From Bacteroidota bacterium (GTDB lineage: Bacteria > Bacteroidota > Ignavibacteria > OLB7), in NCBI GenBank assembly GCA_048498995.1, contig JBEHWX010000005.1, positions 12,758-76,757 of the forward strand: 64,000 bases of DNA. The letters run 5' to 3'. The translations under genes and the position numbers were made by a program. The notes under the pieces are model-generated. The model was not told where the DNA came from, ran no database searches, and was given only the letters and a program-made list of their open reading frames with translations. Positions within the stretch are counted from its first letter, which is position 1. Every line of letters begins with the position of its first letter. Below are positions 392 to 21,305 of the stretch, one piece after another.

Positions 392-421
392 GAGGGGCGC
401 CCGGTCTCCCGGACGCCCCTC
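392..421 (-). terminator. Putative terminator hairpin downstream of the giant repeat gene
   Basis: gaggggcgcccgg/tctc/ccggacgcccctc forms a 13-bp stem with one mismatch and a 4-nt loop. It starts ~30 nt past the stop codon at 453. The following T-tract on the minus strand is weak (gcgcgtttcc). Confidence 0.45.
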
Positions 422-452
422 GTCGGTTACATCGATTGCTCGACGACGCTGC

Positions 453-6400: not shown

Positions 6401-9400
6401 GCTGCGCGGTGTTGACCGCGTCGGCGGCAAGCTTCACGCTCGTCACCGAGCTGTCGGCAAGCTTTGCCGTCGTCACGTTCGCGTCGGCGATCTTCGAGGT
6501 CGTCACCGAGCCGTCGGCAAGCTTCGCCGTCGTCACGTTCGCGTCGGCGATCTTCGAGGTCGTCACCGAGCCGTCGGCAAGCTTCGCCGTCGTCACGTTC
6601 GCGTCGGCGATCTTCGAGGTCGTGATTGCGCCGTCGGCCACATGAGCCGTATTCACCGCATTCGTACCCAGCTTCAGGCTCGTCACCGCGCTATCGGCCA
6701 GCTTCGGCGTCGTCACCGATCCATCGGCGAGCTTGGCCGTCGTCACGTTCGCATCGGAGATCTTCGAGGTCGTGATGGCGCCGTCGGCCACGTGGACCGT
6801 GGTCACCGAGCCGGTACCGAGCTTCACGCTCGTGATCGAGCTGTCGGCCAGCTTCGGCGTGGTCACATTGCCATCGGCAAGCTTCGGCGTGGTGATCGCG
6901 CCATCGGCCACGTGGGCCGTATTGACGGCCGCGGTGCCGATCTTCAGGCTCGTCACCGAGCTGTCGGCAAGCTTCGCCGTCGTCACACTGCCATCGGCCA
7001 GTTTGGCCGTGGTCACGTTGGCGTCGGCAAGCTTCGAGGTCACGATGGCACCGTCAGCGACATGAGCGGTGTTGACCGCGCTGGTGCCGAGCTTCGCGCC
7101 GGTCACCGAGCTGTCGGCAAGCTTCGCCGTCGTCACGTTACCGTCGACGATCTTCGCCGTGGTCACGCTACCGTCAGCGAGCTTGGCTGTCGTCGCAGCG
7201 CCATCAGCGAGCTTCGGCGTCGTCACCGAACCATCCGCGATATGCGCCGTGGTCACCGCGCCGGTGCCGAGCTTCGCGCCGGTCACCGAGCTGTCAGCAA
7301 GCTTCGCGGTCGTCACGTTGCCATCGGCAAGCTTCGCCGTGGTCACGCTGCCGTCGGCGAGCTTCGCCGTGGTCACGTTCGCGTCGGCGATCTTCGAGGT
7401 CGTGATGGCACCATCGGCCACATGAGCCGTGTTCACCGCATTCGTGCCCAGCTTCACGCCGGTCACCGAGCTGTCGGCCAGTTTCGCCGTCGTCACCGAG
7501 CCGTCGGCCAGCTTGGCGGTCGTCACATTCGCGTCGGCAAGCTTCACGGTGGTCACCGCGCCGTCGGCAAGCTTCGGGGTCGTCACCGAGCCATCGGCCA
7601 AGTGCGCGGTGTTGACCGCGTCGGCGGCGAGCTTCACGCTTGTCACGGAGCTGTCGGCCAGCTTCGCGGTCGTCACGTTACCGTCAACGATCTTCGCGGT
7701 GGTCACGCTACCGTCAGCGAGCTTGGCCGTCGTCACGTTCGCATCGGCAAGCTTCGCCGTCGTGATCGCGCCGTCGACGACGTGAGCCGTATTGACGGCA
7801 TTGGTGCCGAGCTTCACGCCGGTCACCGAGCTATCGGCAAGCTTCGCGGTCGTCACGTTGCCGTCGACGATCTTCGCCGTCGTCACACTGCCATCAGCGA
7901 GCTTCACGGTCGTTACCGAGCCATCGGCCAGCTTCGCGGTAGTTGCAGCACCATCAGCAAGCTTCGGCGTCGTCACCGAGCCATCGGCCAGGTGCGCCGT
8001 GGTCACCGCGCTGGTGCCGAGCTTCGCGCCGGTCACCGAGCTGTCAGCGAGCTTCGCCGTGGTAACGCTTCCGTCGGCGAGCTTCGCCGTCGTCACCGAT
8101 CCGTCAGCCAGCTTCGCGGTCGTCGCCGCACCATCAGCGAGCTTCGGCGTCGTCACCGAGCCGTCCGCGATATGTGCCGTGGTCACCGCATTCGTGCCCA
8201 GCTTCACGCCGGTCACCGAGCTGTCGGCCAGCTTGGCCGTCGTCACATTCGCGTCGGCCATCTTCGCGGTGGTCACCGCGCCGTCAGCCAGCTTCGGCGT
8301 CGTCACCGAGCCATCAGCCAGGTGCGCCGTGTTCACCGCGTTGGTGCCGAGCTTTGCGCTCGTCACCGAGCTGTCGGCCAGCTTCGCCGTCGTCACGTTG
8401 CCATCGACGATCTTCGCGGTGGTCACCGAGCCGTCAGCGAGCTTGGCGGTCGTCACGTTCGCGTCGGCGATCTTCGCCGTCGTGATCGCGCCGTCGACGA
8501 GGTGAGCGGTGTTGACCGCATTGGTGCCGAGCTTCACGCCGGTCACCGAGCTGTCGGCAAGCTTCGCGGTCGTCACGTTGCCGTCGACGATCTTCGCGGT
8601 GGTCACCGAGCCGTCGGCAAGCTTCACGGTCGTTACCGAGCCGTCGGCAAGCTTGGCGGTAGTTGCAGCGCCATCGGCAAGCTTCGGCGTCGTCACCGAG
8701 CCATCGGCCAGGTGCGCCGTGTTCACCGCATTCGTGCCGAGCTTCGCGCTCGTCACCGAGCTGTCGGCCAGCTTCGCCGTCGTGACATTGCCATCGACGA
8801 TCTTCGCCGTCGTCACGCCGCCGTCAGCAAGCTTCGCCGTCGAAACACTTCCGTCAGCGAGCTTGGCCGTGGTGACCGAGCCATCGGTGAGGTCGGAAGT
8901 GACGATACTATTGTTGAGATTCAGCTTGCCGTAGGCGATCGAGGCCGTCGGGCTCACGTCGGCATCGACTATCGTACCGTCGGCGATCTTCGCCGAGGTC
9001 ACCGATCCGTCGGCAAGCTTCGCGGTACCGATGGCGCCGTCGGCGATCTTCGCCGAGGTGATCGCGCCATCGGTCACATGGGCGGTATTCACGGCATTGG
9101 TGCCGAGCTTGGCGCCCGTAACGGAGCTGTCAGCCAGCTTCGCCGTGGTCACGCCACCGTCGGCAAGCTTCGCGGTCGACACACTGCCATCGACAAGCTT
9201 CGCCGTGGTCACGCTGCCATCAGCCAGCTTCGCGCTCGTGATCGCGCCGTCGGTCACATGTGCCGTGGTGACGGCGTTGGTGCCGAGTTTGGCGCTGGTC
9301 ACCGCGCTATCGGCCAGCTTCGCGGTCGTCACGCTGCCATCGGCAAGCTTGGTCGCGGTCACACTGGCGTCGGCGAGCTTCGGGGTGGTGACACTGCCGT

Positions 9401-11339
9401 CAGCGAGCTTCGCGGTCGCGATGGCACCGTCGGCGATCTTCGCCGACGTGATGGCGCCGTCGGTTACGTGCGTCGTGGTAACGGCGTTGGTGCCGAGCTT
9501 CGCGGAGGTTACCGCGCTGTCGGCGAGCTTGGCGGTCGTGACATTGCCGTCGACGATCTTCGCGGAGGTCACCGATCCGTCAGCCAGCTTCGCGGTGGTC
9601 ACCGATCCATCGACAAGCTTCGCGGTCGAGACCGAGCCATCGGCAAGCTTCGCCGTGGTCACGGCGCCGTCAGTCAGATCACCCGTCGTGATGCTGTTGG
9701 CCAGATTGAGCTTGCTGTAGGCGATGGCGGCGGTCGGCGAAACATCGGCGTTGACGATCGTGCCGTCGGCGATCTTCGCCGAGGTCACCGATCCGTCGGT
9801 CAGCTTCGCGGTACCGATGGCGCCGTCGGCGATCTTCGCCGAGGTGATCGCGCCGTCGGCAACATGGGTCGTGGTGACGGCGTTGGTGCCGAGCTTCGCG
9901 GAGGTCACCGCGCTATCGGCCAGCTTCGCCGTGGTCACATTGCCATCGACGATCTTCGCCGTCGAGACCGAGCCGTCGGCCAGCTTCGCGGAGGTGACGG
10001 AGCCATCGGCGAGCTTCGCGGTCGTGGCGCTGCCGTCGGCCAGCTTGGCCGAGGTCACGCCGCCGTCGGCGAGCTTCGCGGTCGTCACGCTGCCATCGGC
10101 CAGCTTCGTGGAGGTCACGGCATTGGCGGCGATGGTCGGGTTCGGGAAGGTGCCGGTCAGATCTCCACCGGCCTCGCCGGTCGGCGGCAGCGACGTCGGG
10201 GCTCCGGAGAGCTTCGAGTAGCTGATGCCGTTGGCGACCTTCGCGTCGGTGATCGCGCCGTCGGCCACGTGGGCAGTAGTGACCGCGCCGGTGCCGAGCT
10301 TCACGCTGGTCACCGCGCTGTCGGCGAGCTTCGCCGTGGTCACCGAGCCGTTGGCAAGCTTCGCCGTCGTGACCGAGCCATCGGCCAGCTTCGCCGTCGA
10401 GACCGAGCCATCGGCGAGCTTCGCGCTGGTCACGGCACCGTCGGCCAGGTCACCGGTCGCGATGCTGTTGGCCAGGTCGAGCTTGCTGTAGGCGATGGCG
10501 GCGCTCGGCGAGACATCGGCATCGATGATCGTGCCGTCGAGGATCTTCGCGGTGGTCACCGAACCATCTGCCAGCTTCGCGGTCGCAACCGAGCCGTCAG
10601 CCAGCTTCGTGGAGGTCACCGAACCGTCGACGATCTTCGCGGAGGTCACCGAGCCGTCAGCCAGCTTCGTGGAGGTAACGCTCCCATCGGCCAGTTTGGC
10701 CGAGCTCACCGATCCGTCTGCCAGCTTGGCGGTGATCACCGATCCGTCGATCAGCTTCGTCGAGGTGACGCTGCCATCGGCCAGCTTCGGGGAGGTCACC
10801 GCGCCATCGGCCAGCTTCGGAGTCGTGACCGAGCCGTCGGCAAGTTTCGCGGTGGTCACCGATCCGTTGGCCAGCTTCGCTCCGGTGATCGATCCGTCGA
10901 GGATCGAGCTCATGTCGATCTCGCCGGCAACGGCCATCGAGGTGTCGGCCCGGTGCGCGCGCACCGCGTACGGGGAGATCGGTAGCTGGATACGCGGGGT
11001 CAGCTCCGCGCCGCTGCCGACGCTGATGCCCACCCAATACTGCTGGTCGAACTGAATGCTCGCGAGCGACGTGTAATTGCCGAGGATGACATTGAAGCGC
11101 TTCACCTGGCCGGCCGTGATCAGGGGCACATTGAAGCTCTCGGTCCAGATTGCCGTTCCGCCGGAAGCGGACGTATACAGTCTGAAGGTCATCATCGGGT
11201 TGGTGCTCAACCCAGCCTGGGTGTTCGTAAGATCACCCTGTAGACTCAAGGTAGGTGGCACCTGCGCATACGCGGACGTACCGCTCAGCGCAATCACGCC
11301 GCATGTTACGATCGCATGCAGTAGTGATCGGTTCCTCAT
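453..11339 (-). CDS. Giant secreted decapeptide-repeat protein (tail-fibre-like), 3,628 aa
   Basis: Uninterrupted ORF (track 453..11384). I prefer the ATG at 11339 because GGGAG lies 7 nt upstream and it gives a Sec signal peptide (MRNRSLLHAIVTCGVIALSGTSAYA|Q). After a ~150-aa N-terminal domain, most of the length is a 10-aa repeat [KR][LIV]AD[GSA]xVT[TS]x. It is punctuated 8 times by GGDL[TS]GT[YF]PNPTIA, by AIAYSKL[ND]L, and by PTGA[ST]xGQxLxYNG motifs. Two ~110-aa copies of 'NATLSGNG..NTWTANQTF..' lie near the C-terminus. Confidence 0.85.
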   Translation of the reverse strand: MRNRSLLHAIVTCGVIALSGTSAYAQVPPTLSLQGDLTNTQAGLSTNPMMTFRLYTSASGGTAIWTESFNVPLITAGQVKRFNVILGNYTSLASIQFDQQYWVGISVGSGAELTPRIQLPISPYAVRAHRADTSMAVAGEIDMSSILDGSITGAKLANGSVTTAKLADGSVTTPKLADGAVTSPKLADGSVTSTKLIDGSVITAKLADGSVSSAKLADGSVTSTKLADGSVTSAKIVDGSVTSTKLADGSVATAKLADGSVTTAKILDGTIIDADVSPSAAIAYSKLDLANSIATGDLADGAVTSAKLADGSVSTAKLADGSVTTAKLANGSVTTAKLADSAVTSVKLGTGAVTTAHVADGAITDAKVANGISYSKLSGAPTSLPPTGEAGGDLTGTFPNPTIAANAVTSTKLADGSVTTAKLADGGVTSAKLADGSATTAKLADGSVTSAKLADGSVSTAKIVDGNVTTAKLADSAVTSAKLGTNAVTTTHVADGAITSAKIADGAIGTAKLTDGSVTSAKIADGTIVNADVSPTAAIAYSKLNLANSITTGDLTDGAVTTAKLADGSVSTAKLVDGSVTTAKLADGSVTSAKIVDGNVTTAKLADSAVTSAKLGTNAVTTTHVTDGAITSAKIADGAIATAKLADGSVTTPKLADASVTATKLADGSVTTAKLADSAVTSAKLGTNAVTTAHVTDGAITSAKLADGSVTTAKLVDGSVSTAKLADGGVTTAKLADSSVTGAKLGTNAVNTAHVTDGAITSAKIADGAIGTAKLADGSVTSAKIADGTIVDADVSPTASIAYGKLNLNNSIVTSDLTDGSVTTAKLADGSVSTAKLADGGVTTAKIVDGNVTTAKLADSSVTSAKLGTNAVNTAHLADGSVTTPKLADGAATTAKLADGSVTTVKLADGSVTTAKIVDGNVTTAKLADSSVTGVKLGTNAVNTAHLVDGAITTAKIADANVTTAKLADGSVTTAKIVDGNVTTAKLADSSVTSAKLGTNAVNTAHLADGSVTTPKLADGAVTTAKMADANVTTAKLADSSVTGVKLGTNAVTTAHIADGSVTTPKLADGAATTAKLADGSVTTAKLADGSVTTAKLADSSVTGAKLGTSAVTTAHLADGSVTTPKLADGAATTAKLADGSVTTVKLADGSVTTAKIVDGNVTTAKLADSSVTGVKLGTNAVNTAHVVDGAITTAKLADANVTTAKLADGSVTTAKIVDGNVTTAKLADSSVTSVKLAADAVNTAHLADGSVTTPKLADGAVTTVKLADANVTTAKLADGSVTTAKLADSSVTGVKLGTNAVNTAHVADGAITTSKIADANVTTAKLADGSVTTAKLADGNVTTAKLADSSVTGAKLGTGAVTTAHIADGSVTTPKLADGAATTAKLADGSVTTAKIVDGNVTTAKLADSSVTGAKLGTSAVNTAHVADGAIVTSKLADANVTTAKLADGSVTTAKLADSSVTSLKIGTAAVNTAHVADGAITTPKLADGNVTTPKLADSSITSVKLGTGSVTTVHVADGAITTSKISDANVTTAKLADGSVTTPKLADSAVTSLKLGTNAVNTAHVADGAITTSKIADANVTTAKLADGSVTTSKIADANVTTAKLADGSVTTSKIADANVTTAKLADSSVTSVKLAADAVNTAQLADGSVTTPKLADGAVTTAKMADANVTTSKLADGSVTTPKLADSAVTSVKIGTNAVTTVHVADGAITTAKMADANVTTAKLADGSVTTAKIADGNVTTAKLADSSVTSLKLGTAAVNTAHVADGAITTSKLADGSVTTAKIVDANVTTAKLADSSVTSVKLGTDAVNTAHVADGAITSAKIADGTITNADVNASAAIAYSKLDLAGSIATGDLANGSVTSAKIADSTITDADVSPTAAINYSKLNLANSIVTADLTNNAVTTAKIADGSVTTAKLADSAVTSLKIGTGAVNTAHIADGSVISIKLADGSVLTAKIADAAITTVKISDDAVTSAKIADGAITNADVNASAAIAYSKLNLTGSIATTDLVDGSVTSAKIADGTIANADVATNAAIAYSKLNLTNSIVAADLTDGSVTTAKLADANVTTAKIADGTIATADLADASVTTAKLADSSVTSVKIGAAAVNTAHLADGSVTSAKISDGTITNADVNASAAIAYSKLNLANSIATSDLTDSSVTSAKIADSTIMDVDVAPNAAIAYSKLNLTNHIVNSDLTLGAVNSVSIEDESVVAVDIASGAVTTAKLADEAVTLPKIDPTGASAGQSLMYNGSSLVWGGSTPGGAAGGDLTGTYPNPTIANDAVTSAKIADGTIATSDLADGSVTSAKIADGTIATGDLANGSVTSAKIADGTIVNADVSPTAAIAYSKLALTSSIVNGDIAVGAVNSASIADASIVAADIAAGAVTTSKLADGSVTTAKLADSAVTSVKLGTNAVNTAHVKDGAITSAKILDGTIATGDLADGSVTSAKIADGAITNADVNASAAIAYSKLNLANSIVTADLTDGSVTTAKLADSAVTSLKLGTAAVNTAHVADGAITDAKVANGISYSKLTGAPTDLPPSGAAGGDLSGTYPNPTIAANAVTTSKISDANVTTAKLADASVTTVKVADGNVTTAKLADSAVTSLKLGTSAVNTAHVADGAITSAKIADGTIVDADINASAAIAYSKLNLSNSIVAGDITADAVTTSKIADGSVTTPKLADGSVTTAKIVDANVTTAKLADSAVTSLKLGTAAVNTAHVADGAITDAKVANGISYSKLTGAPTDLPPSGAAGGDLSGTYPNPTIAANAVTTSKITDANVTTAKLADSAVTSVKLGTDAVNTAHVADGAITSAKIADGTIVDADINASAAIAYSKLNLSNSIVAGDITADAVTTSKIADGNVTTAKLADSAVTSLKLGTAAVNTAHVADGAITDAKVANGISYSKLTGAPTDLPPSGAAGGDLSGTYPNPTIAANAVTTSKITDGNVTTSKLADSAVTSLKLGTDAVTTAHVADGAITSAKIADGTIVSADLATGAVATSNIDPTGATSGQALTYNGTNVVWSTPTSNVTHNATLSGNGSSGSPLAVNLGNANTWTANQTFAGTFMIASNSRIALTNSDNNARDIRWQEPSGTGTQYVGLRAPSVSNSGNYVLPAVVGSVGQVLSLATSNGIDSATMTWITPTASGTAGGDLTGTYPNPTIADNAVTTSKIADANVTLAKISAAGASSGQVIGYDGANVVWTTGGASGSAGGDLTGTYPNPTIANDAVTSAKIADGTIVDADISSSAAIAYSKLSLANSIVAADLTDGAVTSAKILDGTIATADLADSAVSGLKLATNAVTTAHIANAAVTPSKIDPTGATSGQALTYNGTNVAWTTVSATVTHNATLSGNGTSGSPLAVNLGNANTWTANQTFAGTFMIASNSRIALTNSDNNGRDIRWQEPSGTGTQYVGLRAPSVSNSGNYVLPAVVGSVGQVLSLATSNGVDSATMTWTTPTATPSGSAGGDLSGTYPNPTIASNAVTTSKISDGNVTPAKMSTSGASTGQVLTYNGSSAAWGYGRVKMARTTVTGAPGGTTYNAASTDEIIGVDVTSGPATVNLPAANSVPAGAVIVIKNELGNAGTNNITISRSGTDLINASSTSLSITFGTATGSFRLYSDGVSRWHQW
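850..2340 (-). repeat. Long direct duplication inside the giant gene (two ~0.55-kb copies, 939-bp offset)
   Basis: Near-identical DNA at ~850..1400 and ~1790..2340. For example, 981 ggtcatcgtggccgagtcca.. matches 1920 ggtcatcgtggccgagtcga... The plus-strand shadow ORFs 1066..1353 and 2005..2292 both begin MPLFETDGARRPTYCVPVPLGSCQR. Confidence 0.85.
6481..6623 (-). repeat. Exact 60-bp tandem duplication (2 full copies plus 23 nt of a third)
   Basis: Lines 6481..6540 and 6541..6600 are identical (gcgtcggcgatcttcgaggtcgtcaccgagccgtcggcaagcttcgccgtcgtcacgttc). The next 23 nt repeat again. This encodes (TSKIADANVTTAKLADGSVT)n. Confidence 0.95.
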
Positions 11340-11346
11340 TATGAAA

Positions 11347-11351
11347 CTCCC
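11347..11351 (-). promoter_or_regulatory. Shine-Dalgarno-like GGGAG for the giant gene
   Basis: Minus-strand GGGAG lies 7 nt upstream of the ATG at 11339. Confidence 0.5.
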
Positions 11352-12035
11352 GTTATTGGTCCTTACCGGGCACGAGGTCGTCATCCAGGCGGAGGGGTGA
11401 AGCGAGGCAGGAGAGCTGGCTGATCGAGATCGCCGGATCTAGATATTGTGCGAAACTGATGTTATGTGGCCGGAATCGGAATGACGCGTTCCGTTCCGTG
11501 TTGGTCGACCGAGGAAGAATGCAACAGCATCACCCCTGGGAAGAGAGGAGATGGGGTCCTCGACGTCACGACGTCCGCATCGACGCCCTCAAGCAACAAC
11601 GCTGATCTTCATCACGAGAAGCGGCGATGGCCTGCCACCTCTCCCTCACGCGCTGCTTGCTTCGTACCGGGGGCGTGATGTCAACGACAAGATGAATGCG
11701 CGACGGGCATCGCCATCCAAAATCAACGTCGTCAATTCTGTCCACCGAGGTGGGGATGTCCCCTTCGGGCCTTCCCGGTGAACGATTGTGGAGTACGGTC
11801 CCAGATTGTGGGCGGGCAAATATACATGGCCATTTCGAAACGGCCCAATATGGGATGGAAATATGTTCAGCCATCATTCACCCCTCCCTCTCCCACGCTT
11901 CCGGCCCTCCCACGCCGGAATCCTCTCCCGAGCGGCACCCGGTTCCTCGGGGCCGGACGATGCCTCGGCCGATTGGCGAGCTCTTTGCATGGTCCGCCGG
12001 GGATGGCTTCGACAACAGACGCGGGAGAATGAAGG

Positions 12036-12383
12036 ATGAATCCGAAGTTCGATCTGGAGCAGGCCGGCGAGCTCCTCGGCAAGCGGGTGATCGTCGATCT
12101 GACGGTCCGTGACCATGACGAGCGGCTGGTCGAGCGGCGGCAGCTGTTCGGAGAGATCCAGCGGATCAACGAGAACGAGGGGGTGGTGCTGGAGCTGATC
12201 CCCTCCGGCGGCGATTATCGCCTCATCCCGGATCTCGACCAGTTCGTCCCGCTCGAACCGGGGGCCTACCGACTGGAGCCCGCGGGAGAAACGGCGGTCG
12301 ATCCGGACTTCCGCTTCGCCTCGGTGGTCCACCTTCCCCCACCCGAATACGACGGGGCGGCACGGGGAAGCGAGGCCGGATGA
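12036..12383 (+). CDS. Hypothetical protein, 115 aa
   Basis: ATG ORF with a balanced, non-Arg/Pro-biased composition (MNPKFDLEQAGELLGKRVIVDLTVRDHDERLVERRQLFGEIQRINENEG..). GGGAG/GAAGG lies just upstream. I recognise no motif. Confidence 0.5.
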   Translation: MNPKFDLEQAGELLGKRVIVDLTVRDHDERLVERRQLFGEIQRINENEGVVLELIPSGGDYRLIPDLDQFVPLEPGAYRLEPAGETAVDPDFRFASVVHLPPPEYDGAARGSEAG

Positions 12384-12754: not shown

Positions 12755-13894
12755 ATGTCTCAGCGCAAGAACAGCGGGCGCTCCACGGGGAAGGAGACGG
12801 CCGCAACGACCACCACGAACGACCTGCATCAGGAGCTCGCCGCACTTCAGGCGGCGGCCACGACTCGTCTTCTCAGCCTTGAGGAGACCGCCAGGATCGC
12901 CGAGCTCAGCAACTTCCTCGCGGTTCAGAGCCATGCTTCGCTCACGGCTCCGAAGGCCGCGCTCGGACCGCTCAGCGCGGTGACCGCCTCGCCGGCCGAC
13001 ATCACCGACGAGCTGGCCAAGGGAGGCCCGGCCTTCGGCGCCTTCGTCAAGAGCGTCGGCCTCGGCGTCGCCGATGCCCAGAGCGCGCTCGACCAGAACC
13101 TCGTCACCACCGCCCAAGCCCTCTCGAACACCAACATCGACGTGATCAGCGTGGTGCAGCAGGTGATCGACCCGACCGACGGCAGCCTTCAGAGCCTGAA
13201 CATCATCAAGGAGAAGCTGCCCTTGATCAACTTCCTGCCGCCGGTCTCCTATCAATGGACCCGCGTCTTCCTGCAGGCGGATATGAAGGTCTCGGAGTTC
13301 AACAGCGCCAACGGCTTCAACGTTCAGGGGAAGTCGAAGAGCTTCAGCGCCGGCATCTCCGGCAGCTACGGCACCGGCGGCTTCGGCATCAGCGGCGGAC
13401 TCCGCTACGGCTCGAGCAGCTACAGCGCCTCGGGCGAAAGCTCCTACAGCCAGGACGTGGCCGCCGGCAGCATGCACATGGAGGCGACCCTCGAGCCGCG
13501 TCCGGACATGGTGATTCCGCCGCCGTTCGTGCTCCAGAAGGGGCCGCGGCTGCGCGCGATGCCGAGCGGCATCATCAACATCGGCACCTCGCCGAACTAC
13601 ACCGGCCGCAAGGTGGTGATCACCCTCGAGCTGCTCAACGGCAGCACCGGGCTGGCCGGCAAGACGCTGGAGTTCCACACCAGCGACCCGATGGTCACCT
13701 ACAAGACCTGGCAGGCGTACGACTTCAACACCAACACCGGTTCGACCACCAGCACCGCCACCAACTCGACCGGCATCCTCTATCTGGAAGTCATTCGTGA
13801 CGGCGCGGCGTTCGATCCGGCCAAGGCCCCGACCCAGGTCGTTATCCGCTCGTGGTTCGGCCTCGTGGCCGCCGAGAGCGCCATCGTGGTGTAA
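12755..13894 (+). CDS. Hypothetical protein, 379 aa: helix motif, Gly/Ser/Tyr-rich beta insert, and a C-terminal Ig-like-looking domain; no signal peptide
   Basis: Strong SD and protein-like composition. Contains the motif SVGLGVADAQSALD, a low-complexity insert SGSYGTGGFGISGGLRYGSSSYSASGESSYS, and then ..SMHMEATLEPRP. The C-terminal ~120 aa (RKVVITLELLNGSTGLAGKTLEFHTSD..TNSTGILYLEVIRDG) resembles bacterial Ig-like folds by eye. Confidence 0.75.
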   Translation: MSQRKNSGRSTGKETAATTTTNDLHQELAALQAAATTRLLSLEETARIAELSNFLAVQSHASLTAPKAALGPLSAVTASPADITDELAKGGPAFGAFVKSVGLGVADAQSALDQNLVTTAQALSNTNIDVISVVQQVIDPTDGSLQSLNIIKEKLPLINFLPPVSYQWTRVFLQADMKVSEFNSANGFNVQGKSKSFSAGISGSYGTGGFGISGGLRYGSSSYSASGESSYSQDVAAGSMHMEATLEPRPDMVIPPPFVLQKGPRLRAMPSGIINIGTSPNYTGRKVVITLELLNGSTGLAGKTLEFHTSDPMVTYKTWQAYDFNTNTGSTTSTATNSTGILYLEVIRDGAAFDPAKAPTQVVIRSWFGLVAAESAIVV

Positions 13895-13898
13895 CGCC

Positions 13899-15179
13899 AT
13901 GGCACTTACTGATTTCCACCGCAGATTCGACGACAGCGTCCGCTGGCGTCTCACACCCGATGGTGTCGAGATCGAGGGGAGCGGCATCGAGCGGACGAAG
14001 GGAAATCCGGCCACGGTCACCAAGGTCTGGGAGAGTTATTCGGCGGAGATCAACCGCACGGCACGCTCACGAGGCGTGCCGTGCGCCTTGATCATCGCCA
14101 CGATCTGCACCGAATCGGGAGGACGCGCCTCGGCGATCCGCCTGGAGCCCGGCTACAAGTCGGACCAGGCGACGCCGGGAAAGGTCAGCCCGGGGCTGAT
14201 GCAGACGTTGATCTCCACGGCGCGCGAAGCGATGAAGGACAACTCGATCGATCGGGATTGGCTGCTGAAGGCGGGCAACTCGATCGAGGCGGGAACGGCG
14301 GTGATCGCCAAACAGTCCAGCAAGACGCACCTCGATCCCCCGTTGGTGGCCGCCGCCTACAACTCCGGCGGCGTCTACGAGCAGACCGGGGCGAACAATC
14401 GCTGGAAGCTGCGCCAGTACCCGATCGGTACCAGCGCTCACTGCGATCGCTTCATCAAGTTCTTCAACGACGCGGTCTACGTGCTGAAGAACCATGGGAC
14501 CAAGCCCTCGGTCGGGATCGAGAAGCTGCTCGACAACGCAGTCACCTCGGTCGGTCCGAGTGCCACATCCGGAACCACGAACGCCCCCGCGGCCAACAGC
14601 GCCACCGTCTCCGGCAGCCCGCGGGTCGCGTCCTCTCCCGGAGGACGGTCCTCCACCGGAGGACGGCAGGAGACGAAGTCGTCGAATGATATCAAGATCT
14701 CCTTCGGCCCGAACGCGAAGGCAGCCGACGTGACCGCCTACTCACGGACGGTCCTGGAGGAGATCATGAGAGCGGCCGACCTGAAGTCGGCTTCGATCTC
14801 AAGCACGCAACGGAATCCGGCCGATCAGGCTCGCGTGATGTACAACAACCTCGAGAAGTACGGCGTCGCCGCGCAGAAGAAGCTCTACGCGGCCGCCGGC
14901 GACAAGGTGATCGACGTCTACGCGAAGTCGAAAGCAGCCAACAAGTCCGCCGACCAGATCAAGGCGGACATGGAGCGGAAGATCATCGAGCTCGGGCCGA
15001 CCAGCGTCTCCCGACATGCTTCCGATCCGAAGATCCTGAACGTCTTCGACGTGGATCCGAGCTCCATCAGAAACCGCCGGGGCTTCGAGCAGGCGGTCAG
15101 GTCGGACAACCGCGTCACGAAGTTCCTCGTCCCTCCGGACGATCCGGGATACCACCTGGAGATCCCGCAGAAGCAGTGA
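13899..15179 (+). CDS. Lytic transglycosylase (GH23/SLT) domain protein with an uncharacterised C-terminal domain, 426 aa; no signal peptide
   Basis: The ATG at 13899 lies 4 nt after the upstream stop; the track ORF from 13797 overlaps the previous gene. SLT motifs are present: ..ICTESGG (catalytic Glu-Ser), GLMQ, AAYNSGG. A Ser/Pro/Gly linker follows. The C-terminal ~150 aa (..ISSTQRNPADQ..VSRHASD..FDVDP..PGYHLEI) is possibly LAS/M15-like; this is tentative. Confidence 0.8.
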   Translation: MALTDFHRRFDDSVRWRLTPDGVEIEGSGIERTKGNPATVTKVWESYSAEINRTARSRGVPCALIIATICTESGGRASAIRLEPGYKSDQATPGKVSPGLMQTLISTAREAMKDNSIDRDWLLKAGNSIEAGTAVIAKQSSKTHLDPPLVAAAYNSGGVYEQTGANNRWKLRQYPIGTSAHCDRFIKFFNDAVYVLKNHGTKPSVGIEKLLDNAVTSVGPSATSGTTNAPAANSATVSGSPRVASSPGGRSSTGGRQETKSSNDIKISFGPNAKAADVTAYSRTVLEEIMRAADLKSASISSTQRNPADQARVMYNNLEKYGVAAQKKLYAAAGDKVIDVYAKSKAANKSADQIKADMERKIIELGPTSVSRHASDPKILNVFDVDPSSIRNRRGFEQAVRSDNRVTKFLVPPDDPGYHLEIPQKQ

Positions 15180-15200
15180 CCACAACGAGAGATTCGACCC

Positions 15201-15539
15201 ATGGAGTTCGAATACCTGGACCCGTCCGACGGGGAGCGCGCGCTGCCGGTGCATCCGGCGGAGCACATCTTCGCGGCGATGGCCCGCAGCATGGTCGAAG
15301 CGCAGCGCGAGCTCGATGAGGCCGCGCGCGCGGCCATCCTCGAATGGGAGAACAACGGCGTTCCCCCCTCGGCGGTCGTATGGTCACTCTGCACGGCTAC
15401 CTTCCCGTCGGTACTCGGATGCCGTCCGAAACAGGAGCCCGGGGAACAAACGCGCATGAGCATCGCCCCGCGTCAGGAGGCGCGGGGCGGTGTCTCCTTC
15501 TCGATTCGCTACCACACCACTCCACTAGAGGAGCCCTAA
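15201..15539 (+). CDS. Hypothetical protein, 112 aa, carrying the shared helix motif
   Basis: ATG lies 21 nt after the upstream stop. Contains AMARSMVEAQRELD, then a beta-like segment ending GVSFSIRYHTTPLE. It is in an operon-like tight arrangement. Confidence 0.6.
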   Translation: MEFEYLDPSDGERALPVHPAEHIFAAMARSMVEAQRELDEAARAAILEWENNGVPPSAVVWSLCTATFPSVLGCRPKQEPGEQTRMSIAPRQEARGGVSFSIRYHTTPLEEP

Positions 15540-15544
15540 CCACT

Positions 15545-16795
15545 ATGGCACGACAGAGCTTCCGTGTCTCCGGCCGAGTGATCAACCGCACGACACGGCG
15601 TGGCGTCGGTGGTCTTCGGGTCGAGGCGTGGGATCGAGACATCAAGCACAACGACCCGCTCGGCTCGGCAATCACCGACGACAGCGGCACCTTCGCGATC
15701 GTCTACGACCGGTCGCGATTCGACGACGAGCCTCGCCGCCAGCGGCCCGACCTTTTCTTCAAGGTGTTCCGCAAGCGGACGCTCCTGGCAACCACCGCGA
15801 GCATGCCGATCGAGAACGCCGGCCGCCGACGCACCGTCAACATTGAAGTCGATCTCGACCTTGCCGCCTCGAAGGAGGGCGCCTCGAAGGAGGGCGCCCC
15901 GAAGGGAGGCGCTCGGAAGAAGGGGGAGAAAACCAACGCAACGACTACCAGGAAGGGAGGCGGCCGCGCCACGCGCGGCGGCGCGGGATCGGCGCGCAAG
16001 GCCAGCCCGAACGATCCGGTAATGCCGGTTCCGGTCGATCCGGATCCGGTCAAGACCGATCCGAACCAGCCTTCCCAGGCACCGTTGACCGGCTCCCTCC
16101 CCGAGGTGAGCATGCACGAGCTCGGCGAGAGCGTGGCCGCCGCGCTGGCCAACGTCCAGCAGGAGCTCGACCGGTATCAGAGCCCGCTCGGCGCCTTCGT
16201 GGTCGACGAGATCGATCTGACGATCCCGGCGCAGATGCGGGTCGATGAGCTGGGCCAGATGATGGTGATCGTCACCAGCCCCGACGGCACCACGCCGGCC
16301 GACGCCTCGCAGATCCGGCTCCGGATCAAGCCGGTGCTCGGATCGCACAACGACCCGCTGATGGCCGGAACGCAGCCGCTGTCGGACGTCACCGCCCTGG
16401 GCCCCGAGCTCATCGATGTGATGAAGTCCGCGCGCGTCTTCACCGTCAACGATTTCAGGCGCGTCACCCGGACGCCGCAGGGGAAGCTGGCGGTGCAATC
16501 GAAGCTCGGCTGGGGGGATGACGAATTCCGCCAGGTCTTCGAACAGATCAAGCTTCTGTCCCTGCCGGTTCTTCCGGTGGCGGTCTCCTCCCTCCTGACG
16601 CGAAAGCTCCGCATGCGGGGCATTCCCGACTTTCTGCAGTACGATTCGTCGGCGATCGCCGACATGATCAACGCGGATTCCGGGCAGGGAAAGGAAGGCT
16701 CCACCATGGTCACCCCGGAGCACGTGGACTGCTGGAAGGATGAGACGCGCACCTATATCGCGATCAAACCTCCCTGCGCCACCACGGCCAAGTGA
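15545..16795 (+). CDS. Transthyretin-like/CarboxypepD_reg-like beta-sandwich protein with a basic low-complexity linker, the shared helix motif and HhH-like C-terminal repeats, 416 aa
   Basis: The ATG at 15545 lies 5 nt after the upstream stop; the track ORF from 15344 overlaps that gene. N-terminus: FRVSGRVINRTTRRGVGGLRVEAWDRDIKHNDPLGSAITDDSGTFAIVY. Linker: SKEGASKEGAPKGGARKKGEK... Then SVAAALANVQQELD..FVVDEIDLTIPAQMRVDELGQMMVIV..SQIRLRIKPV. The C-terminus has LSDVTALGPELIDVMKSARVFTVNDF and LPVLPVAVSSLLTRKLRMRGIPDFLQY. Confidence 0.75.
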   Translation: MARQSFRVSGRVINRTTRRGVGGLRVEAWDRDIKHNDPLGSAITDDSGTFAIVYDRSRFDDEPRRQRPDLFFKVFRKRTLLATTASMPIENAGRRRTVNIEVDLDLAASKEGASKEGAPKGGARKKGEKTNATTTRKGGGRATRGGAGSARKASPNDPVMPVPVDPDPVKTDPNQPSQAPLTGSLPEVSMHELGESVAAALANVQQELDRYQSPLGAFVVDEIDLTIPAQMRVDELGQMMVIVTSPDGTTPADASQIRLRIKPVLGSHNDPLMAGTQPLSDVTALGPELIDVMKSARVFTVNDFRRVTRTPQGKLAVQSKLGWGDDEFRQVFEQIKLLSLPVLPVAVSSLLTRKLRMRGIPDFLQYDSSAIADMINADSGQGKEGSTMVTPEHVDCWKDETRTYIAIKPPCATTAK

Positions 16796-16903
16796 CCGGC
16801 GGCGGCAGCGAACGGATCCTCGCGCCCCGCGCGAGGCAATGAGAACACGCCCGTGACCGAGTCGTCGGTGCATCGACGCTCGAACACCACCAACAACACG
16901 AGT

Positions 16904-16909
16904 AAGGAG
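16904..16909 (+). promoter_or_regulatory. Shine-Dalgarno AAGGAG for the C1 peptidase gene
   Basis: agtAAGGAGagaggcaccATG; the spacing is 9 nt. Confidence 0.6.
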
Positions 16910-16918
16910 AGAGGCACC

Positions 16919-17626
16919 ATGCCCGAGGCACCGCTGGGACGGCGCGTTCCGTCCGACTGGAAGCATGTGGAGAAATACCCGTTCAGCGCGATGGCCTCCC
17001 CGGCCGTCACGACGGTCGAGCGCACGCTCCGGCTTCCGGAATACCGCGAGAAATACAATCAGATGCGTGAGGGGGCGTGCGTCGGCTTCGCCTCCTCCTG
17101 GATGATGTCGATCCTGAACCGGCGGCTGTACAACCCGCGCTGGCTCTGGAACGAGGCCAAAAAGATCGACGAATGGCCGGAGACCAATCCCGGCGACAAT
17201 CAGGGAACCTCGGTGCGCGCGGCGATGGATGTGCTTCGCGCGCAGGGACACGTCCGCGTGGTCCGCGGCCGGGAGTCCCCGCCCGATCTGGCCGACGGGA
17301 TCCTGGAAAACCGCTGGGCCACGACAGTGGACGAGATTCGCACGGCGATCGCCGGCGGCATCCCGGTGACGATCGGCGTCAACTGGTACACCGCGTTCGA
17401 CACGCCGACGCAGAAGGATGGGAACTGGTGGATCGGGGATGGTGATCTCGGCCATATCCGCGGAGGGCACTCGGTCTGCATCTTCCGCGCCTCCGACCGG
17501 CTGCAGGCCGTCGGCATCGTCAACAACTGGGGGCCGAGCTATCCGCTCGTGCTGATGCCCTACGGCGTCCTTTCCCGACTCCTCGGCGAGCAGGGAGAAG
17601 CGGCGCTGGTCACCGATCGCCCATGA
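16919..17626 (+). CDS. Papain-like cysteine peptidase (family C1-like), 235 aa; no signal peptide
   Basis: The catalytic signature is intact: Q-x5-C (YNQMREGACVGFASSWM), His (IRGGHSVCIFR) and Asn-Trp (VNNWGPSYP). The start at 16919 is supported by the SD; the track start at 16853 is an alternative. Confidence 0.8.
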   Translation: MPEAPLGRRVPSDWKHVEKYPFSAMASPAVTTVERTLRLPEYREKYNQMREGACVGFASSWMMSILNRRLYNPRWLWNEAKKIDEWPETNPGDNQGTSVRAAMDVLRAQGHVRVVRGRESPPDLADGILENRWATTVDEIRTAIAGGIPVTIGVNWYTAFDTPTQKDGNWWIGDGDLGHIRGGHSVCIFRASDRLQAVGIVNNWGPSYPLVLMPYGVLSRLLGEQGEAALVTDRP

Positions 17627-18245: not shown

Positions 18246-21101
18246 TCAACGGAGGATCCGCATCCTCCGGCTCTCATCGCCGACCGGCGTCTCCAGGCGA
18301 TAGTAGTAGACGCCGGCCGCCATCCCTCCCGCTCCCAGGCGATCGGGAACCACCTCGACGCTCTGCGCTCCCGGACCGAACACCCGGTCCAGCAGCGTGG
18401 CCACCTCCCGCCCGGCCGGATCGAACAGCCGCAGCCGCACCCGGCCGATCGGCATCGAGGCCGGCAGCGTAAAACGGATCGTGGTCCGCGCGCCGACCGG
18501 ATCGGGATAATTTCCTTCCAGCATCTTCCCCGTGTTCCCCGCCACCGTCCCATCCGACGAGCCTTCGCGATCGACTCCGAGCGTTCCGATCGACGTGGTG
18601 TAGACGCCGTTGCCGTGCGTCGCCACCGCCACGAACCCGTCGGACTGCCGCGCGTCGATCATGTCGACCACCACGTTCCCGATCGTCTCGCTCCCCTCCT
18701 GCGTCCATTGCGTGGAGGCGCCGTCGAGCCTCATCGTCGAGTACAGGCCGGTGCTGGTCGCCACCATGTACAGGGTGGTGGTGCCGCGATGCAGGAACGA
18801 GAACCAGCGGCAGGAAGGTCCCGCGCCCGATCCCGTGGTCGCGTTCGGCTCCAGGTTGCCGCCGATCGGCGTCCAGGTCTCGCCGGCATCGGTGGTCAGG
18901 AACAGGCTCTGAACGCTGTAATTGGAGAAGACCACCACCGCCCTGTTGCCGTCGAGCGGATCGACCGAGATGCAGGTGACGTAGCCATCCTTCGGGAAGC
19001 TTCCGCCGGTGATCTCGATCTTCTGCGGATCCCCGGCGTCCGCCCCGTCGAGGCGGAACACGCGGCCGTTCTCGGTGCCGTAGTAGACCCGGTGCAGCGG
19101 CGCGGCGGCGGTCACCGCGAGGGCGCTGATCTTGGTGCTGTCGCTCACCTTCGCGCCGGCAAGGCGGGTCCAGTTGACCGACGTGCTCCGGTTCGGCGAG
19201 GCGGGAATCGCCGACAGATCGGAATTCCGCCAGAGGTCGACGCCGCCGGCCAGGAACATCATGTTCTGATTGGCCGGATCGAGCGTGAACGGATTGGTGA
19301 ACAGATAGCCGGTTCCCCCCTCGGGATCGACACGGGTCGAGGAGATCATGTTCCCCTGACCGTCGAGCCGGACGCGGAAGAGATAGCCGAACTGGTTCGA
19401 AACGTAGTAGGCGGAGCGCCCGTCGGCGATCGCGACGAAGGCGCCGTCGCTGGTTCCGCGCAGTGTCCAGGGAGCGGCGCCGTTGGCGGTCGCCGACATC
19501 CAGGTGCCGTTGTCCTGCAAGCCCCCCATCATCGTCGGGTCTCCCGGCGTGGCGTGGTCGATCGCGATCGAATAGAACTGCGTGGTCAGATAGCCGCCGT
19601 TGAGCGATTCCCACGCGACGGTGGCGGCGGTGGCGTCCGGGCTGCGATGGATGCCGCCGTCGCTGCCGGTATAGACCACCCGCGGATCGCGCGGGGAGAA
19701 GACGAGCGTATGCTGATCGGGATGATGCTCGGGATAGGAGTAATCGTTGATCACCAGCGTGTCCCGATCGAAGTTCTTGTAGCCGCCGATCCAGGCCGTC
19801 TTCGTCTTCGTGGCGAACGCATCGTCCGAGCGGTAGAGGTTGGTGCCGCCGATGAAGAGGACGTTCTCGTCGTCCGGCTTGGCGTGGACGTGGAGATCGT
19901 ATCCCCCCTGCGAGAAGAAGTCGCCGGAGCCGCCGCCGAATGCGGGAAGGTTCATCGAGCGATCCTCCCAACGGCCACCGCTCCCGGTGCCGTCGCCGGA
20001 GAGATAGGTGTATTTCCAGAGGCTCTGCCAGGAGGAATCGCCCCGGAAGTTCCTGCCGAGGAAGCCGCGTCCGGGGGTCTCGGCCAGCACGTAGAGAACG
20101 TTCGGATTCGACGGGGCCAGGCCGAGCACGATCCGTTCGGGATCGGCGGGGAAGCTGTCCGGGGTGATCTTCTTCCAGGTACCGGAGGCGCCGTCGACGG
20201 TGCGCCAGATGCCGCGGTTCACCCCGCCCCCTCCGATGGCGCCGTAGACCACTCCCTCGCGGGTGACCGTCACGTCGGTGTAAGGTCCCTGATAGTTCCC
20301 CGCCATGCCGCTGCCGCGGAGCACGTCGGTCCAGGTGGTGCCGCCGTTGGTCGAGCGGGAGATCACGCCGTAATAGGCGGCGTAGACCTCGTCCTGGGTG
20401 GTGTTCGACGGATCGACCGCGACGCTCCAGACGAAGTCCGACGGACGATCGAACAGGTGCGGCTTGTTCGAGGCGGTGGCCGCGAGCGGCGCCCAGGAGC
20501 GGCCGTTATCGGTCGACTTGAACAGCCCGTTTCCCTGGTAGTAGGCGTATGCCTCGGAGGCGCTGCTGCCGAGGAGCTCCCCGGTGCCGTAGTACCAGGT
20601 GGCGGAATGGCCGGGGCGGGTATCCTGCGTGATGCAGGTGACCGACGGAAGCTGTCCCGGAAGCGTCGTCTTGCTCCAGGTTCTCCCCCGATCGGTGGAG
20701 CGCCACATGCCGCCGGAGGTGCCGCCGGCCAGGATCGTATCCTCCCCGGTCACGTCGACGGCGAGGGCGCGCGTGCGGCCGCCGATATTGAACGGCCCGC
20801 GATGGTTCCAACTGTACTCCTGCATGCCGGCCCCCTTCATCATCGCCATGGATCTGCGGGGAAGCGTGGCCGCGTAGGCCAGCTCCCGCGCGCGAATCCT
20901 CTCGGGAATCCTCCCCGTGGCCGGATCGCGCAGGCGCAGATGCTCCCACTCGGCCCGAGCCGCGGGGTTCTCGCTCTCGCCGATCGCCTCCGGCTCCTCG
21001 CCGGCCGGCTCGCCGGGATGTCCCGGAGTGAGGATATGCGCCGAGAGCGCCGCGCAGGTCGCGATCAGCGCCAGATAGAGGGAAGTGCGTAGCCGTGTCA
21101 T
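18246..21101 (-). CDS. Secreted BNR/Asp-box beta-propeller protein with a T9SS C-terminal sorting domain, 951 aa
   Basis: The ATG at 21101 gives the signal peptide MTRLRTSLYLALIATCAALSAHI. Asp-box motifs are present: STDRGRTWS, STDNGRSWA, STNGGTTWT, TTDAGETWT. The C-terminus (..TTIRFTLP..VRLRLFDPAGREVATLLD..GVYYYRLE..RMRILR) is typical of a T9SS CTD. The track ORF extension to 24533 is antisense to the AddB-like gene. Confidence 0.85.
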   Translation of the reverse strand: MTRLRTSLYLALIATCAALSAHILTPGHPGEPAGEEPEAIGESENPAARAEWEHLRLRDPATGRIPERIRARELAYAATLPRRSMAMMKGAGMQEYSWNHRGPFNIGGRTRALAVDVTGEDTILAGGTSGGMWRSTDRGRTWSKTTLPGQLPSVTCITQDTRPGHSATWYYGTGELLGSSASEAYAYYQGNGLFKSTDNGRSWAPLAATASNKPHLFDRPSDFVWSVAVDPSNTTQDEVYAAYYGVISRSTNGGTTWTDVLRGSGMAGNYQGPYTDVTVTREGVVYGAIGGGGVNRGIWRTVDGASGTWKKITPDSFPADPERIVLGLAPSNPNVLYVLAETPGRGFLGRNFRGDSSWQSLWKYTYLSGDGTGSGGRWEDRSMNLPAFGGGSGDFFSQGGYDLHVHAKPDDENVLFIGGTNLYRSDDAFATKTKTAWIGGYKNFDRDTLVINDYSYPEHHPDQHTLVFSPRDPRVVYTGSDGGIHRSPDATAATVAWESLNGGYLTTQFYSIAIDHATPGDPTMMGGLQDNGTWMSATANGAAPWTLRGTSDGAFVAIADGRSAYYVSNQFGYLFRVRLDGQGNMISSTRVDPEGGTGYLFTNPFTLDPANQNMMFLAGGVDLWRNSDLSAIPASPNRSTSVNWTRLAGAKVSDSTKISALAVTAAAPLHRVYYGTENGRVFRLDGADAGDPQKIEITGGSFPKDGYVTCISVDPLDGNRAVVVFSNYSVQSLFLTTDAGETWTPIGGNLEPNATTGSGAGPSCRWFSFLHRGTTTLYMVATSTGLYSTMRLDGASTQWTQEGSETIGNVVVDMIDARQSDGFVAVATHGNGVYTTSIGTLGVDREGSSDGTVAGNTGKMLEGNYPDPVGARTTIRFTLPASMPIGRVRLRLFDPAGREVATLLDRVFGPGAQSVEVVPDRLGAGGMAAGVYYYRLETPVGDESRRMRILR

Positions 21102-21305
21102 GTCGTTGGTCCGCGTGATCAGCCGTCGGGGGTTGGAGGACGGGGTTGTTTCAGGCTCGTGAAGAAGGTGAAAGCTACACGTTTGCCCCGGCCGTGACAA
21201 GGGCCTCGAACCCGCTCCCCCTCGAGGCCGGCCTCCGCCCCGGCGCGTCGTATCTTTGCTGCGGCTCGTTTCCCCTCTCCCGAACATCGATCCCGAGCGA
21301 CGACG

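Follow-up and report, generated by a model that had tools for sequence, protein, structure and literature searches.

A conserved gene cassette in bacteria and archaea that combines a peptidoglycan hydrolase with a candidate membrane-active, Pepco-like protein module

Introduction

Trypco1 and Trypco2 are families of small proteins, defined by their co-occurrence with peptidases in conflict systems (Kaur et al. 2020, PMC7159879). The Trypco2 protein of Streptomyces subrutilus, termed Pepco (SsPepco), is 117 residues long and consists of a basal amphipathic helix and β-strands; it forms SDS-resistant 9- to 10-mer β-barrels, and turns toxic when an associated protease cuts off the C-terminal tail, which is charged and proline-rich (Evans et al. 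2025, bioRxiv 10.1101/2025.11.14.688446). Here, we describe a cassette of five genes, P1 to P5, in a 64,000-nucleotide stretch of DNA from a Bacteroidota bacterium (contig JBEHWX010000005.1), which is referred to in its full length as the window. One of the encoded proteins, P4, probably contains a remote relative of the Trypco2/Pepco module, and the cassette as a whole is tentatively read as a self-lysis module, in which a pore and a wall hydrolase are linked to a protease. Coordinates refer to the window, unless a locus is named.

12755-13894, + strand: P1, 379 aa; variable polar N-terminus, helices, β-sheet with a long hairpin and immunoglobulin (Ig)-like C-terminal domain (AlphaFold2 (AF2) model)
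13899-15179, + strand: P2, 426 aa; leaderless lytic transglycosylase with an extra C-terminal domain
15201-15539, + strand: P3, 112 aa; minimal form of the helix-plus-strand module; C-terminal tail acidic and Pro-containing
15545-16795, + strand: P4, 416 aa; transthyretin (TTR)/CarboxypepD_reg-like domain, basic linker, helix-plus-strand module and DUF4332/helix-hairpin-helix (HhH)-like domain
16919-17626, + strand: P5, 235 aa; leaderless papain-like cysteine peptidase, optional member

Conservation and distribution of the cassette

The gene order P1-P2-P3-P4(-P5) recurs in 24 other loci, which are distributed among at least ten bacterial phyla and two archaeal metagenome-assembled genomes (MAGs). 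Counts out of 25 given below comprise the window locus and these 24 others. A scan of 185,579 species genomes, with the P1 alignment as query, yielded 20 loci, nearly all of which were ordered P1-P2-P3-P4, with P5 next in seven (by tblastn and a P3 hidden Markov model, HMM); P3 itself was found in 17 of the 20 by either of these two means. Five further loci were obtained via exact-protein look-ups. Such conservation of gene order is far beyond chance. The initial annotation of the window had named non-conservation as a ground for rejecting the proposed operon, and this refutation fails because the order is conserved.

The actinomycetal hosts (Actinomycetota) include Herbidospora, Planotetraspora, Geodermatophilus, Kitasatospora and Acidimicrobiales. 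Other bacterial hosts belong to Chloroflexota, Dormibacterota, Acidobacteriota, Gemmatimonadota, Polyangiaceae (Myxococcota) and Oligoflexia, together with a spirochaete and the cyanobacterium Pannus, and the two archaeal MAGs are represented by an 881-kb Methanosarcina contig and a Thermoplasmata contig. In a Pyrinomonadaceae MAG, reached by a homologue search with P4, the genes P1-P4 are present in the same order (identities of 40, 61, 44 and 33%), without P5.

All-against-all clustering of the open reading frames (ORFs) within ±10 kb of 21 loci revealed no conserved family beyond P1-P5, except for antisense shadows. The annotated flanks vary by locus, and include TetR and lipase genes, shikimate genes, a MoxR-vWA operon, a type III-B CRISPR-Cas system and a TIR/nSTAND/trypsin cluster. 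Since no flanking genes are conserved, and given its patchy distribution of the type produced by horizontal gene transfer (HGT), the cassette is considered an autonomous, horizontally mobile unit. Co-translation is supported by the layout in other genomes, where overlaps of 1-4 nt occur between cassette genes and P5 either abuts P4 or overlaps it. At one of the loci (L043), the cassette lies among genes for ThsB-TIR, TIR_2, nSTAND1 (fused to CarboxypepD_reg) and Trypsin_2 proteins (774-4523 and 19587-21005), and at another (L035) it adjoins the type III-B (Cmr) CRISPR-Cas genes (1-4999).

In searches of P1-P5 against Pfam, NCBIfam and PHROGs, the only substantial matches were those of P2 to SLT and of P5 to phrog_16701, and Pfam holds no family for P1, P3, P5, the core module of P4 or the C-terminal domain of P2. 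Sequence searches of the PDB, made both with single proteins and with profiles, likewise retrieved SLT and xylellain structures only. There was no system-level match in PADLOC, NCBIfam or PHROGs, and full-text literature on DUF4332, and on Trypco together with transglycosylase, contained no description of the gene set that we could find, in agreement with the initial view that the set is undescribed.

A helix-plus-strand module common to P1, P3 and P4

Profile comparisons support the view that P1, P3 and P4 are paralogues built on a single helix-plus-strand module, with P3 as the link. Pairwise BLAST among the three was not significant, and early hhalign comparisons with small alignments were weak, such that larger family alignments were required. 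With these, P3 aligned to P1 with a probability of 83% (P=9.4e-6; score 37.0 versus a shuffled null of 11.7±2.2; z 11.5) and to the P4 module with a probability of 80% (P=1.4e-5; score 31.5 versus 10.2±1.7; z 12.2). The direct comparison of P4 with P1 gave a probability of 5% (P=0.0076; score 20.2 versus 11.8±2.5; z 3.3). The aligned elements comprise a helix with an invariant Gln (AQxxLD) and the next strand (PPSAxxWSxxxL in P3), between which P1 carries two extra inserted strands. A divergent second cassette from Gemmatimonadota (L030) provides intermediates, in that the P1 HMM matches its P3-like protein at 1.3e-5, and the P3 HMM matches its P1-like proteins at 1.7e-4 and 0.002. A profile match of P3 to a designed PPR protein (4wsl) contained no single passing stretch and was set aside as a repeat artefact.

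In P1, the following parts can be distinguished:

13004-13498, + strand: helix-plus-strand module of P1, residues 84-248; paralogous to P3 by hhalign
13343-13408, + strand: amphipathic β-hairpin of P1, residues 197-218, rich in Gly/Ser/aromatic residues; tip of the long hairpin
13544-13891, + strand: Ig-like (Big_1-like) domain of P1, residues 264-379; predicted local distance difference test (pLDDT) >90

The AF2 model of P1 (mean pLDDT 79) consists of two N-terminal helices, a 42-residue helix that bears the invariant AQxxLD motif, two short strands, a long hairpin (166-192 and 223-248) and the Ig-like domain; the tip of the hairpin is modelled at low confidence. Among 103 members of the P1 family, the tip follows the pattern F-S-A-G-A-S-A-S-Y-G-L / GG / F-G-A-S-G-S-A-S-Y, in which apolar or aromatic side chains make up one face and Ser and Gly the other, with 5-7% charged residues and flanking aromatics. 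This is the pattern of a membrane-spanning β-hairpin, and residues 197-218 are therefore a candidate membrane-inserting segment.

Foldseek matched the P1 model to intimin D0-D1 and other Ig domains in the PDB and BFVD, through its Ig part only, and PF02369 is precomputed on some P1 homologues. No fold match outside the Ig domain was found in the PDB, and the ideas of an HK97-like capsid, gas-vesicle or ClyA-type protein, which had arisen from the secondary structure, were dropped on this account. The P1 family comprises more than 131 clusters at 90% identity, in which every named entry is termed "hypothetical". No relatives of P1 were detected in 50,697 phage records, 72,556 plasmids or 2.9 million IMG/VR contigs.

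P4 and its probable relationship to Trypco2/Pepco

In P4, the module is embedded between two additional domains:

15545-15844, + strand: TTR/CarboxypepD_reg-like β-sandwich, residues ~1-100; Pfam matches in homologues
16100-16354, + strand: putative Trypco2/Pepco-like module, residues ~186-270; short strand, amphipathic helix and three strands
16391-16759, + strand: DUF4332/HhH-like all-helical domain, residues ~283-405

The conserved core of P4 is ~240 aa in length and is represented by ~285 clusters at 50% identity in an exhaustive profile search; homologue searches with the core alone were less sensitive than those with full-length P4. In the AF2 model of the core (pLDDT 91, predicted template modelling score 0.81), a short strand (12-14) and a 20-residue helix (15-34) precede three strands (48-58, 64-68 and 80-86), followed by the all-helical domain. 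Foldseek retrieved no relative of this model from the PDB (best E=0.43). The flanking domains were assigned through homologues: DUF4332 is present in 59 of the 97 P4-family members (best 4.9e-19) and HHH_5 in 38 of them, and the TTR-like domain occurs among orthologues in none to several copies. Neither TTR/CarboxypepD_reg nor DUF4332/HHH is detected in the window P4 itself, which aligns with the family throughout, and whose C-terminal region is modelled as all-helical.

The P4 module is probably a remote relative of Trypco2/Pepco, as judged from profile similarity. Up to nine of the 97 family members show weak matches to these families, five of them to Trypco2 (best E=0.0027) and four to Pepco (best 0.0064), with overlap between the two sets being possible. 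For the consensus of the P4 module, Trypco2 was the top Pfam match (E=0.015), at 16.0 bits versus a cut-off of 24.2; as a control, SsPepco scores 65.6 bits against Pfam. By hhalign, Trypco2 and the P4 module align in register (probability 56%, P=1.1e-4, score 27), where 60 column shuffles gave a mean of 10.8, a standard deviation of 2.1 and a maximum of 15.6, on a shallow Trypco2 alignment of four Streptomyces sequences, i.e., SsPepco (from the preprint supplement) and three plasmid-borne "trypco2 family" proteins. The profile is shallow because two metagenome scans for additional Trypco2 sequences yielded none. The window proteins gave no match to Trypco2/Pepco (PF19631 and PF24393) at E<=1, and NCBIfam was uninformative on Trypco2, as the SsPepco control also had no match there.

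Proteins that share only the TTR-like domain of P4 adjoin Tc-toxin genes on a metagenome contig (L010 1848-12055) and in Nitrosomonas europaea (L011 3966-21115). The neighbouring genes encode TcB/TcC-like (SpvB, RHS) and TcA-like (ABC_toxin_N, TcA_TcB_BD) proteins. A Tc-toxin link of the cassette was considered and dropped, since the TTR domain is all that it has in common with the Tc-linked proteins.

Variable wall hydrolases and proteases

Of the cassette proteins, P2 is the most conserved, with 46-66% identity across phyla (aligned columns), and two parts of it are recognizable:

14052-14375, + strand: SLT/GH23 domain of P2, residues 52-159
14706-15176, + strand: C-terminal domain of P2, residues ~270-426 (~160 aa), highly conserved

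The first of these matches Pfam SLT (PF01464) at 2.7e-11 (43.5 bits versus a cut-off of 21.3). In the alignment of 14 orthologues, both E72 (in CTES) and the AAAYNAG motif are invariant, and the P2 profile matches the structures of MltC and Slt70 in the PDB. By its sequence, P2 is thus an intact SLT-type peptidoglycan hydrolase. The C-terminal domain carries the motifs STxRxPxxQARVMYNN, VSRH..DP and DPxYHLEIP, and has no Pfam or PDB sequence match. Its assignment as an M15/LAS peptidase was dropped, there being a resemblance of motifs only and no support from Pfam or the PDB. P2 also shows weak matches (~1e-3) to the "lytic tail fiber" and "endolysin" families of PHROGs.

The hydrolase varies among the loci. 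P2 is reduced to its SLT domain in the Kitasatospora and Streptomyces loci (Streptomycetaceae), and is missing at both archaeal loci and at two actinobacterial loci. One of the latter, in an actinomycetal MAG (L042 = L025), carries directly after P5 and on the same strand a gene with VanY/Peptidase_M15_4 and PG_binding_1 domains (13373-14632), which looks like a functional replacement of the P2 wall hydrolase. The P2 protein of Pannus brasiliensis (L032 10897-12339) is extended at its N-terminus and ends in a different C-terminal domain, in which SRHxxxxAID and PHW motifs recall M15 peptidases; this domain had no Pfam match.

P5 belongs with phrog_16701, annotated as "peptidase" (1.5e-17). P5 and seven orthologues had no match to Peptidase_C1 at E<=10; P5 itself was without a Pfam match, and one orthologue showed a weak match to C39_2. 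The profile of seven orthologues matches the papain-like protease xylellain (3OIS; E=3.9e-7) over the half that includes His, Asn and Trp. Q48, C54 (GACVGF), H184 (GGHxxC) and N202-x-W204 are invariant in the seven orthologues; the Cys/Gln half lies outside the 3OIS alignment, and Q48 and C54 were assigned by motif only. On these sequence features P5 is classed as a papain-like peptidase. Its phage relatives, annotated as papain-family proteases, are remote (24-29% identity).

P5 is not a constant member of the cassette; a papain-like P5 is present in eight of the 25 loci. In two others, both from Gemmatimonadota (L030 and L044), an S8 subtilase is found instead. These two cassettes contain seven genes in the order P1-P2-S8-P1'-P1''-P3'-P4' (L030 12646-19097 and L044 12656-18903), which encode an 856-aa subtilase, two extra P1 paralogues, a divergent P3 of 129 aa and a coiled-coil P4 with DUF4332. 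The subtilase gene of L030 is frameshifted, probably owing to a long-read assembly error.

Taken together, Pfam, profiles, AF2/Foldseek and the domains of homologues indicate that the domain guesses of the initial annotation were essentially right. This applies to its GH23/SLT protein with an extra C-terminal domain (an SLT match above the Pfam threshold and an alignable, conserved C-terminal domain), its C1 peptidase with a Gln/Cys/His/Asn set (the xylellain profile match and the invariant columns), its Ig-like C-terminus of P1 (the AF2 model and the intimin D0-D1 matches) and its three paralogous helix/β-module proteins (P of ~1e-5 for P3 versus both P1 and P4, and the cross-matches in L030).

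Operon structure and neighbouring genes

The five genes form one operon. They are located on one strand, with spacers of 4, 21, 5 and 123 nt between successive genes, and within the five-gene block no sigma-70-like promoter or intrinsic terminator was found. Genes called independently on six contigs, five from metagenomes and one from a MAG (GCA_048498215.1), gave the same product lengths wherever the gene was complete on its contig. The initial description of same-strand genes with short spacers is borne out by the ORFs and by these calls. Its "good" Shine-Dalgarno sites are only partly so, because those of P2 and P3 are weak; the sites of P1 (AGGAG) and P5 (AAGGAG) are strong, and that of P4 (GAGGAG) is acceptable though distant from the ATG. 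As had also been proposed, P1-P5 appear to lack export signals: none contains a 19-residue window with a Kyte-Doolittle value >=1.6, no signal peptide or transmembrane (TM) helix was found in them, and their N-termini are all polar.

The cassette is transcribed divergently from a giant gene (453-11384, - strand), whose 3643-aa product has a hydrophobic N-terminus that resembles a signal sequence, together with hundreds of ~10-aa "KLADGSVTTA" repeats. A 3227-aa ORF on the + strand (1302-10985) and several further + strand ORFs are antisense shadows of this gene. None of the 24 other cassette loci contains the giant fibre gene and, since the flanks are unrelated between loci, its position beside the cassette is a coincidence; the functional tie suggested earlier is not upheld. 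Between the giant gene and P1 lies an ORF of 115 aa (12036-12383, + strand), which is called as a gene on metagenome contigs, has no Pfam match and is not conserved upstream of the cassette in other loci.

Directly downstream of P5, a 951-aa BNR/sortilin-like protein is encoded (18246-~21101, - strand), with a C-terminal tail that resembles a type IX secretion system sorting domain, a feature suggestive of a host akin to the FCB group. The Thermoplasmata locus likewise encodes a BNR_2 protein (L036 13335-14843), at a distance of two genes downstream from its cassette, which may be a coincidence. Further downstream in the window (21306-24740, + strand) is a gene for a 1144-aa protein with UvrD_C and PDDEXK_1 domains, which resembles the AddB helicase-nuclease subunit. 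A minus-strand ORF (18246-24533) is over-extended and covers the coding region of this AddB-like protein.

Proposed function and alternatives

Since the types of hydrolase and protease vary between loci, the constant core of the cassette consists of the three module proteins, accompanied by a peptidoglycan hydrolase of variable type wherever murein is present and, as a frequent option, by a protease of variable class. We propose, with a probability of roughly 45%, that the cassette is a protease-linked pore-plus-lysin self-lysis module, acting in abortive infection or programmed cell death. P1, P3 and P4, alone or jointly, would assemble into a β-barrel, to which P1 would supply its apolar hairpin, and which would insert into the cytoplasmic membrane from inside. 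The leaderless P2 would then gain access to the wall and complete lysis, in a manner resembling holin-endolysin systems. Where a protease is present, it would license the pore by cleaving off a tail or domain at the C-terminus, as in the case of Pepco; the tail of P3, the DUF4332 domain of P4 and the Ig domain of P1 occupy the position of the inhibitory tail of Pepco. A sensor or tether function may lie with the TTR copies and HhH domain of P4, and the fusion of CarboxypepD_reg to a STAND NTPase at locus L043 shows that cytoplasmic conflict proteins make use of domains of this kind. Among the three functions put forward in the initial annotation, a protease-activated conflict or defence module fits best, given the Trypco2/Pepco-like module, the alternation of papain-like and S8 proteases and the TIR/STAND locus.

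Several observations weigh against this proposal. In 15 of the 25 loci there is no protease in the cassette, such that proteolysis cannot be obligatory. The P4 module does not reach the Pfam gathering score for Trypco2/Pepco, and direct hhalign comparisons of P3 and P1 with Trypco2 detected no similarity. P1-P5 had no match in PADLOC-DB v2 at E<=1, and no obvious sensor NTPase is linked to the cassette. The defence-gene context is anecdotal, being confined to two loci and without statistics, and the other flanks are housekeeping-like. Moreover, Ig-like, TTR and peptidoglycan hydrolase domains are more typical of extracytoplasmic proteins, and a folded P2 of 46 kDa would need a large pore or gross membrane damage in order to pass.

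The same domain types, in proteins that are nevertheless leaderless, could point to a Sec-independent device for export or attack, in which a P1/P3/P4 barrel would serve as a conduit for P2 (and P4 or P1) from the living cell, either for remodelling its own wall or for attacking neighbours in the manner of a bacteriocin. Envelope-spanning machines, among them the flagellum and the type III and type IV secretion systems, have dedicated lytic transglycosylases, and FlgJ is exported without a signal peptide; the position of P2 as the most conserved protein of the cassette would also be in line with such a role. We regard this explanation as unlikely: the 25 loci contain no conserved ATPase, immunity or apparatus gene, a single envelope-spanning architecture is difficult to reconcile with monoderm, diderm and archaeal carriers, and the lack of P2 at the archaeal loci fits better with action on the producer's own wall than on bacterial neighbours. 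Another reading, decidedly unlikely in our estimation, invokes a non-lethal structural module associated with the envelope or nucleoid, which would open the wall for release or uptake of DNA, or form developmental cell-cell channels, with the HhH domain of P4 binding DNA. The DUF4332/HhH domain and basic linker of P4 would suit this role, many of the carriers are filamentous or multicellular (actinomycetes, Chloroflexota, Cyanobacteria and Polyangiaceae) and most flanks are housekeeping genes. Against it stand the patchy, HGT-like distribution and the swapping of proteases and hydrolases, which are typical of conflict systems and not of core machinery for development, together with the resemblance of the P4 module to a characterised death effector.

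The two remaining explanations had been raised in the initial annotation. A phage lysis or tail-lysin module, domesticated and linked in function to the giant tail-fibre-like gene, would account for the weak PHROG matches of P2, the membership of P5 in phrog_16701 and the divergent transcription from the giant repeat protein. It is largely refuted, and in our view very improbable: P1 has no relatives in the phage, plasmid and IMG/VR collections, which speaks against a phage origin, the phage relatives of P5 are only 24-29% identical, the giant gene is absent elsewhere, the flanks contain neither phage genes nor integrases, and there is no holin with a TM helix. That the proteins might instead be cargo or effectors of a contractile injection system or type VI secretion system encoded elsewhere is scarcely credible. 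Both enzymes are leaderless, and remote relatives of the P4 TTR domain adjoin Tc-toxin genes, although these share the TTR domain only; at none of the loci is the cassette linked to genes for a sheath, tube, baseplate, VgrG, PAAR or Tc protein, and its carriers are as different as Methanosarcina and Streptomyces.

If the self-lysis proposal is true, the cassette would represent a widespread, unnamed module for cell suicide or lysis. It would extend the Pepco pore family to large multi-domain paralogues and to archaea, and would couple a β-barrel pore directly to a peptidoglycan hydrolase, thus placing holin-endolysin logic outside the phages. A broader and distinctly speculative extension is that of a minimal envelope-breaching machine of bacteria and archaea, in which a hetero-oligomeric β-barrel of three Pepco-superfamily paralogues, formed on the cytoplasmic side, would serve both as a death or exit pore and as an export route for the hydrolase, with the HhH subunit as trigger or cargo (e.g., for sensing of phage DNA or release of DNA); it would constitute a new class of holin-independent lysis or secretion system. 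The cassette provides a testable functional context for P1, P3, P5, the P4 core module and the C-terminal domain of P2, none of which has a Pfam match, and experiments are feasible, as several cultured strains carry it, among them Geodermatophilus telluris DSM 45421, Herbidospora mongoliensis NBRC 105882, Streptomyces sp. Tue6028 and Pannus brasiliensis CCIBt3594, as well as Planotetraspora spp.

Comparison with known systems

The holin-endolysin systems offer a parallel in the arrangement of a leaderless muralytic enzyme beside a candidate membrane-permeabilising protein. SLT and VanY/M15 hydrolases can replace each other in the cassette, and the enzyme is lost where murein does not exist, as in the archaea. 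In contrast to these systems, the cassette has no α-helical TM holin and no spanin, its pore candidate being a β-hairpin protein; it was not found in phages, prophages or plasmids, and it adds DNA-binding-like and protease components.

Bacterial gasdermin operons similarly combine a cytoplasmic pore-former, for which the cassette has a candidate with amphipathic β-hairpins, with proteases of varying class, including subtilases, and their distribution is likewise patchy. The differences are that there is no gasdermin match in Pfam and no gasdermin chain among the Foldseek PDB matches listed, that the domain order of P1 differs, and that the protease of the cassette is not always present.

In β-barrel toxins with an extended stem, such as anthrax protective antigen and α-haemolysin, a hairpin of alternating Ser/Gly and apolar residues with flanking aromatics forms the tip of a long β-hairpin, and P1 appears alike in this respect. 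Unlike what is proposed for the cassette, such toxins are secreted and attack the target cell from its exterior, and Foldseek gave no fold match beyond the Ig domain of P1.

A further likeness is to Pepco/Trypco2 itself. The small strand-helix-strands module appears to be shared, with 112 aa in P3 versus 117 aa in SsPepco, as are the Gly-rich loop between strands, the acidic, Pro-containing C-terminal tail, the adjoining gene for a serine or cysteine protease and the common occurrence in Actinomycetota and Cyanobacteria. Unlike Pepco, the cassette encodes three paralogues instead of one, and the sequence similarity, which is below the Pfam gathering score, is confined to P4. P1 is greatly expanded by extra strands, the long hairpin and the Ig domain, and in P4 the module is joined to TTR-like and DUF4332/HhH-like domains. 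The protease of the cassette is a bare papain-like or S8 enzyme, without a STAND, Avs or vWA sensor, and is often absent, while a peptidoglycan hydrolase forms an integral part of the cassette.

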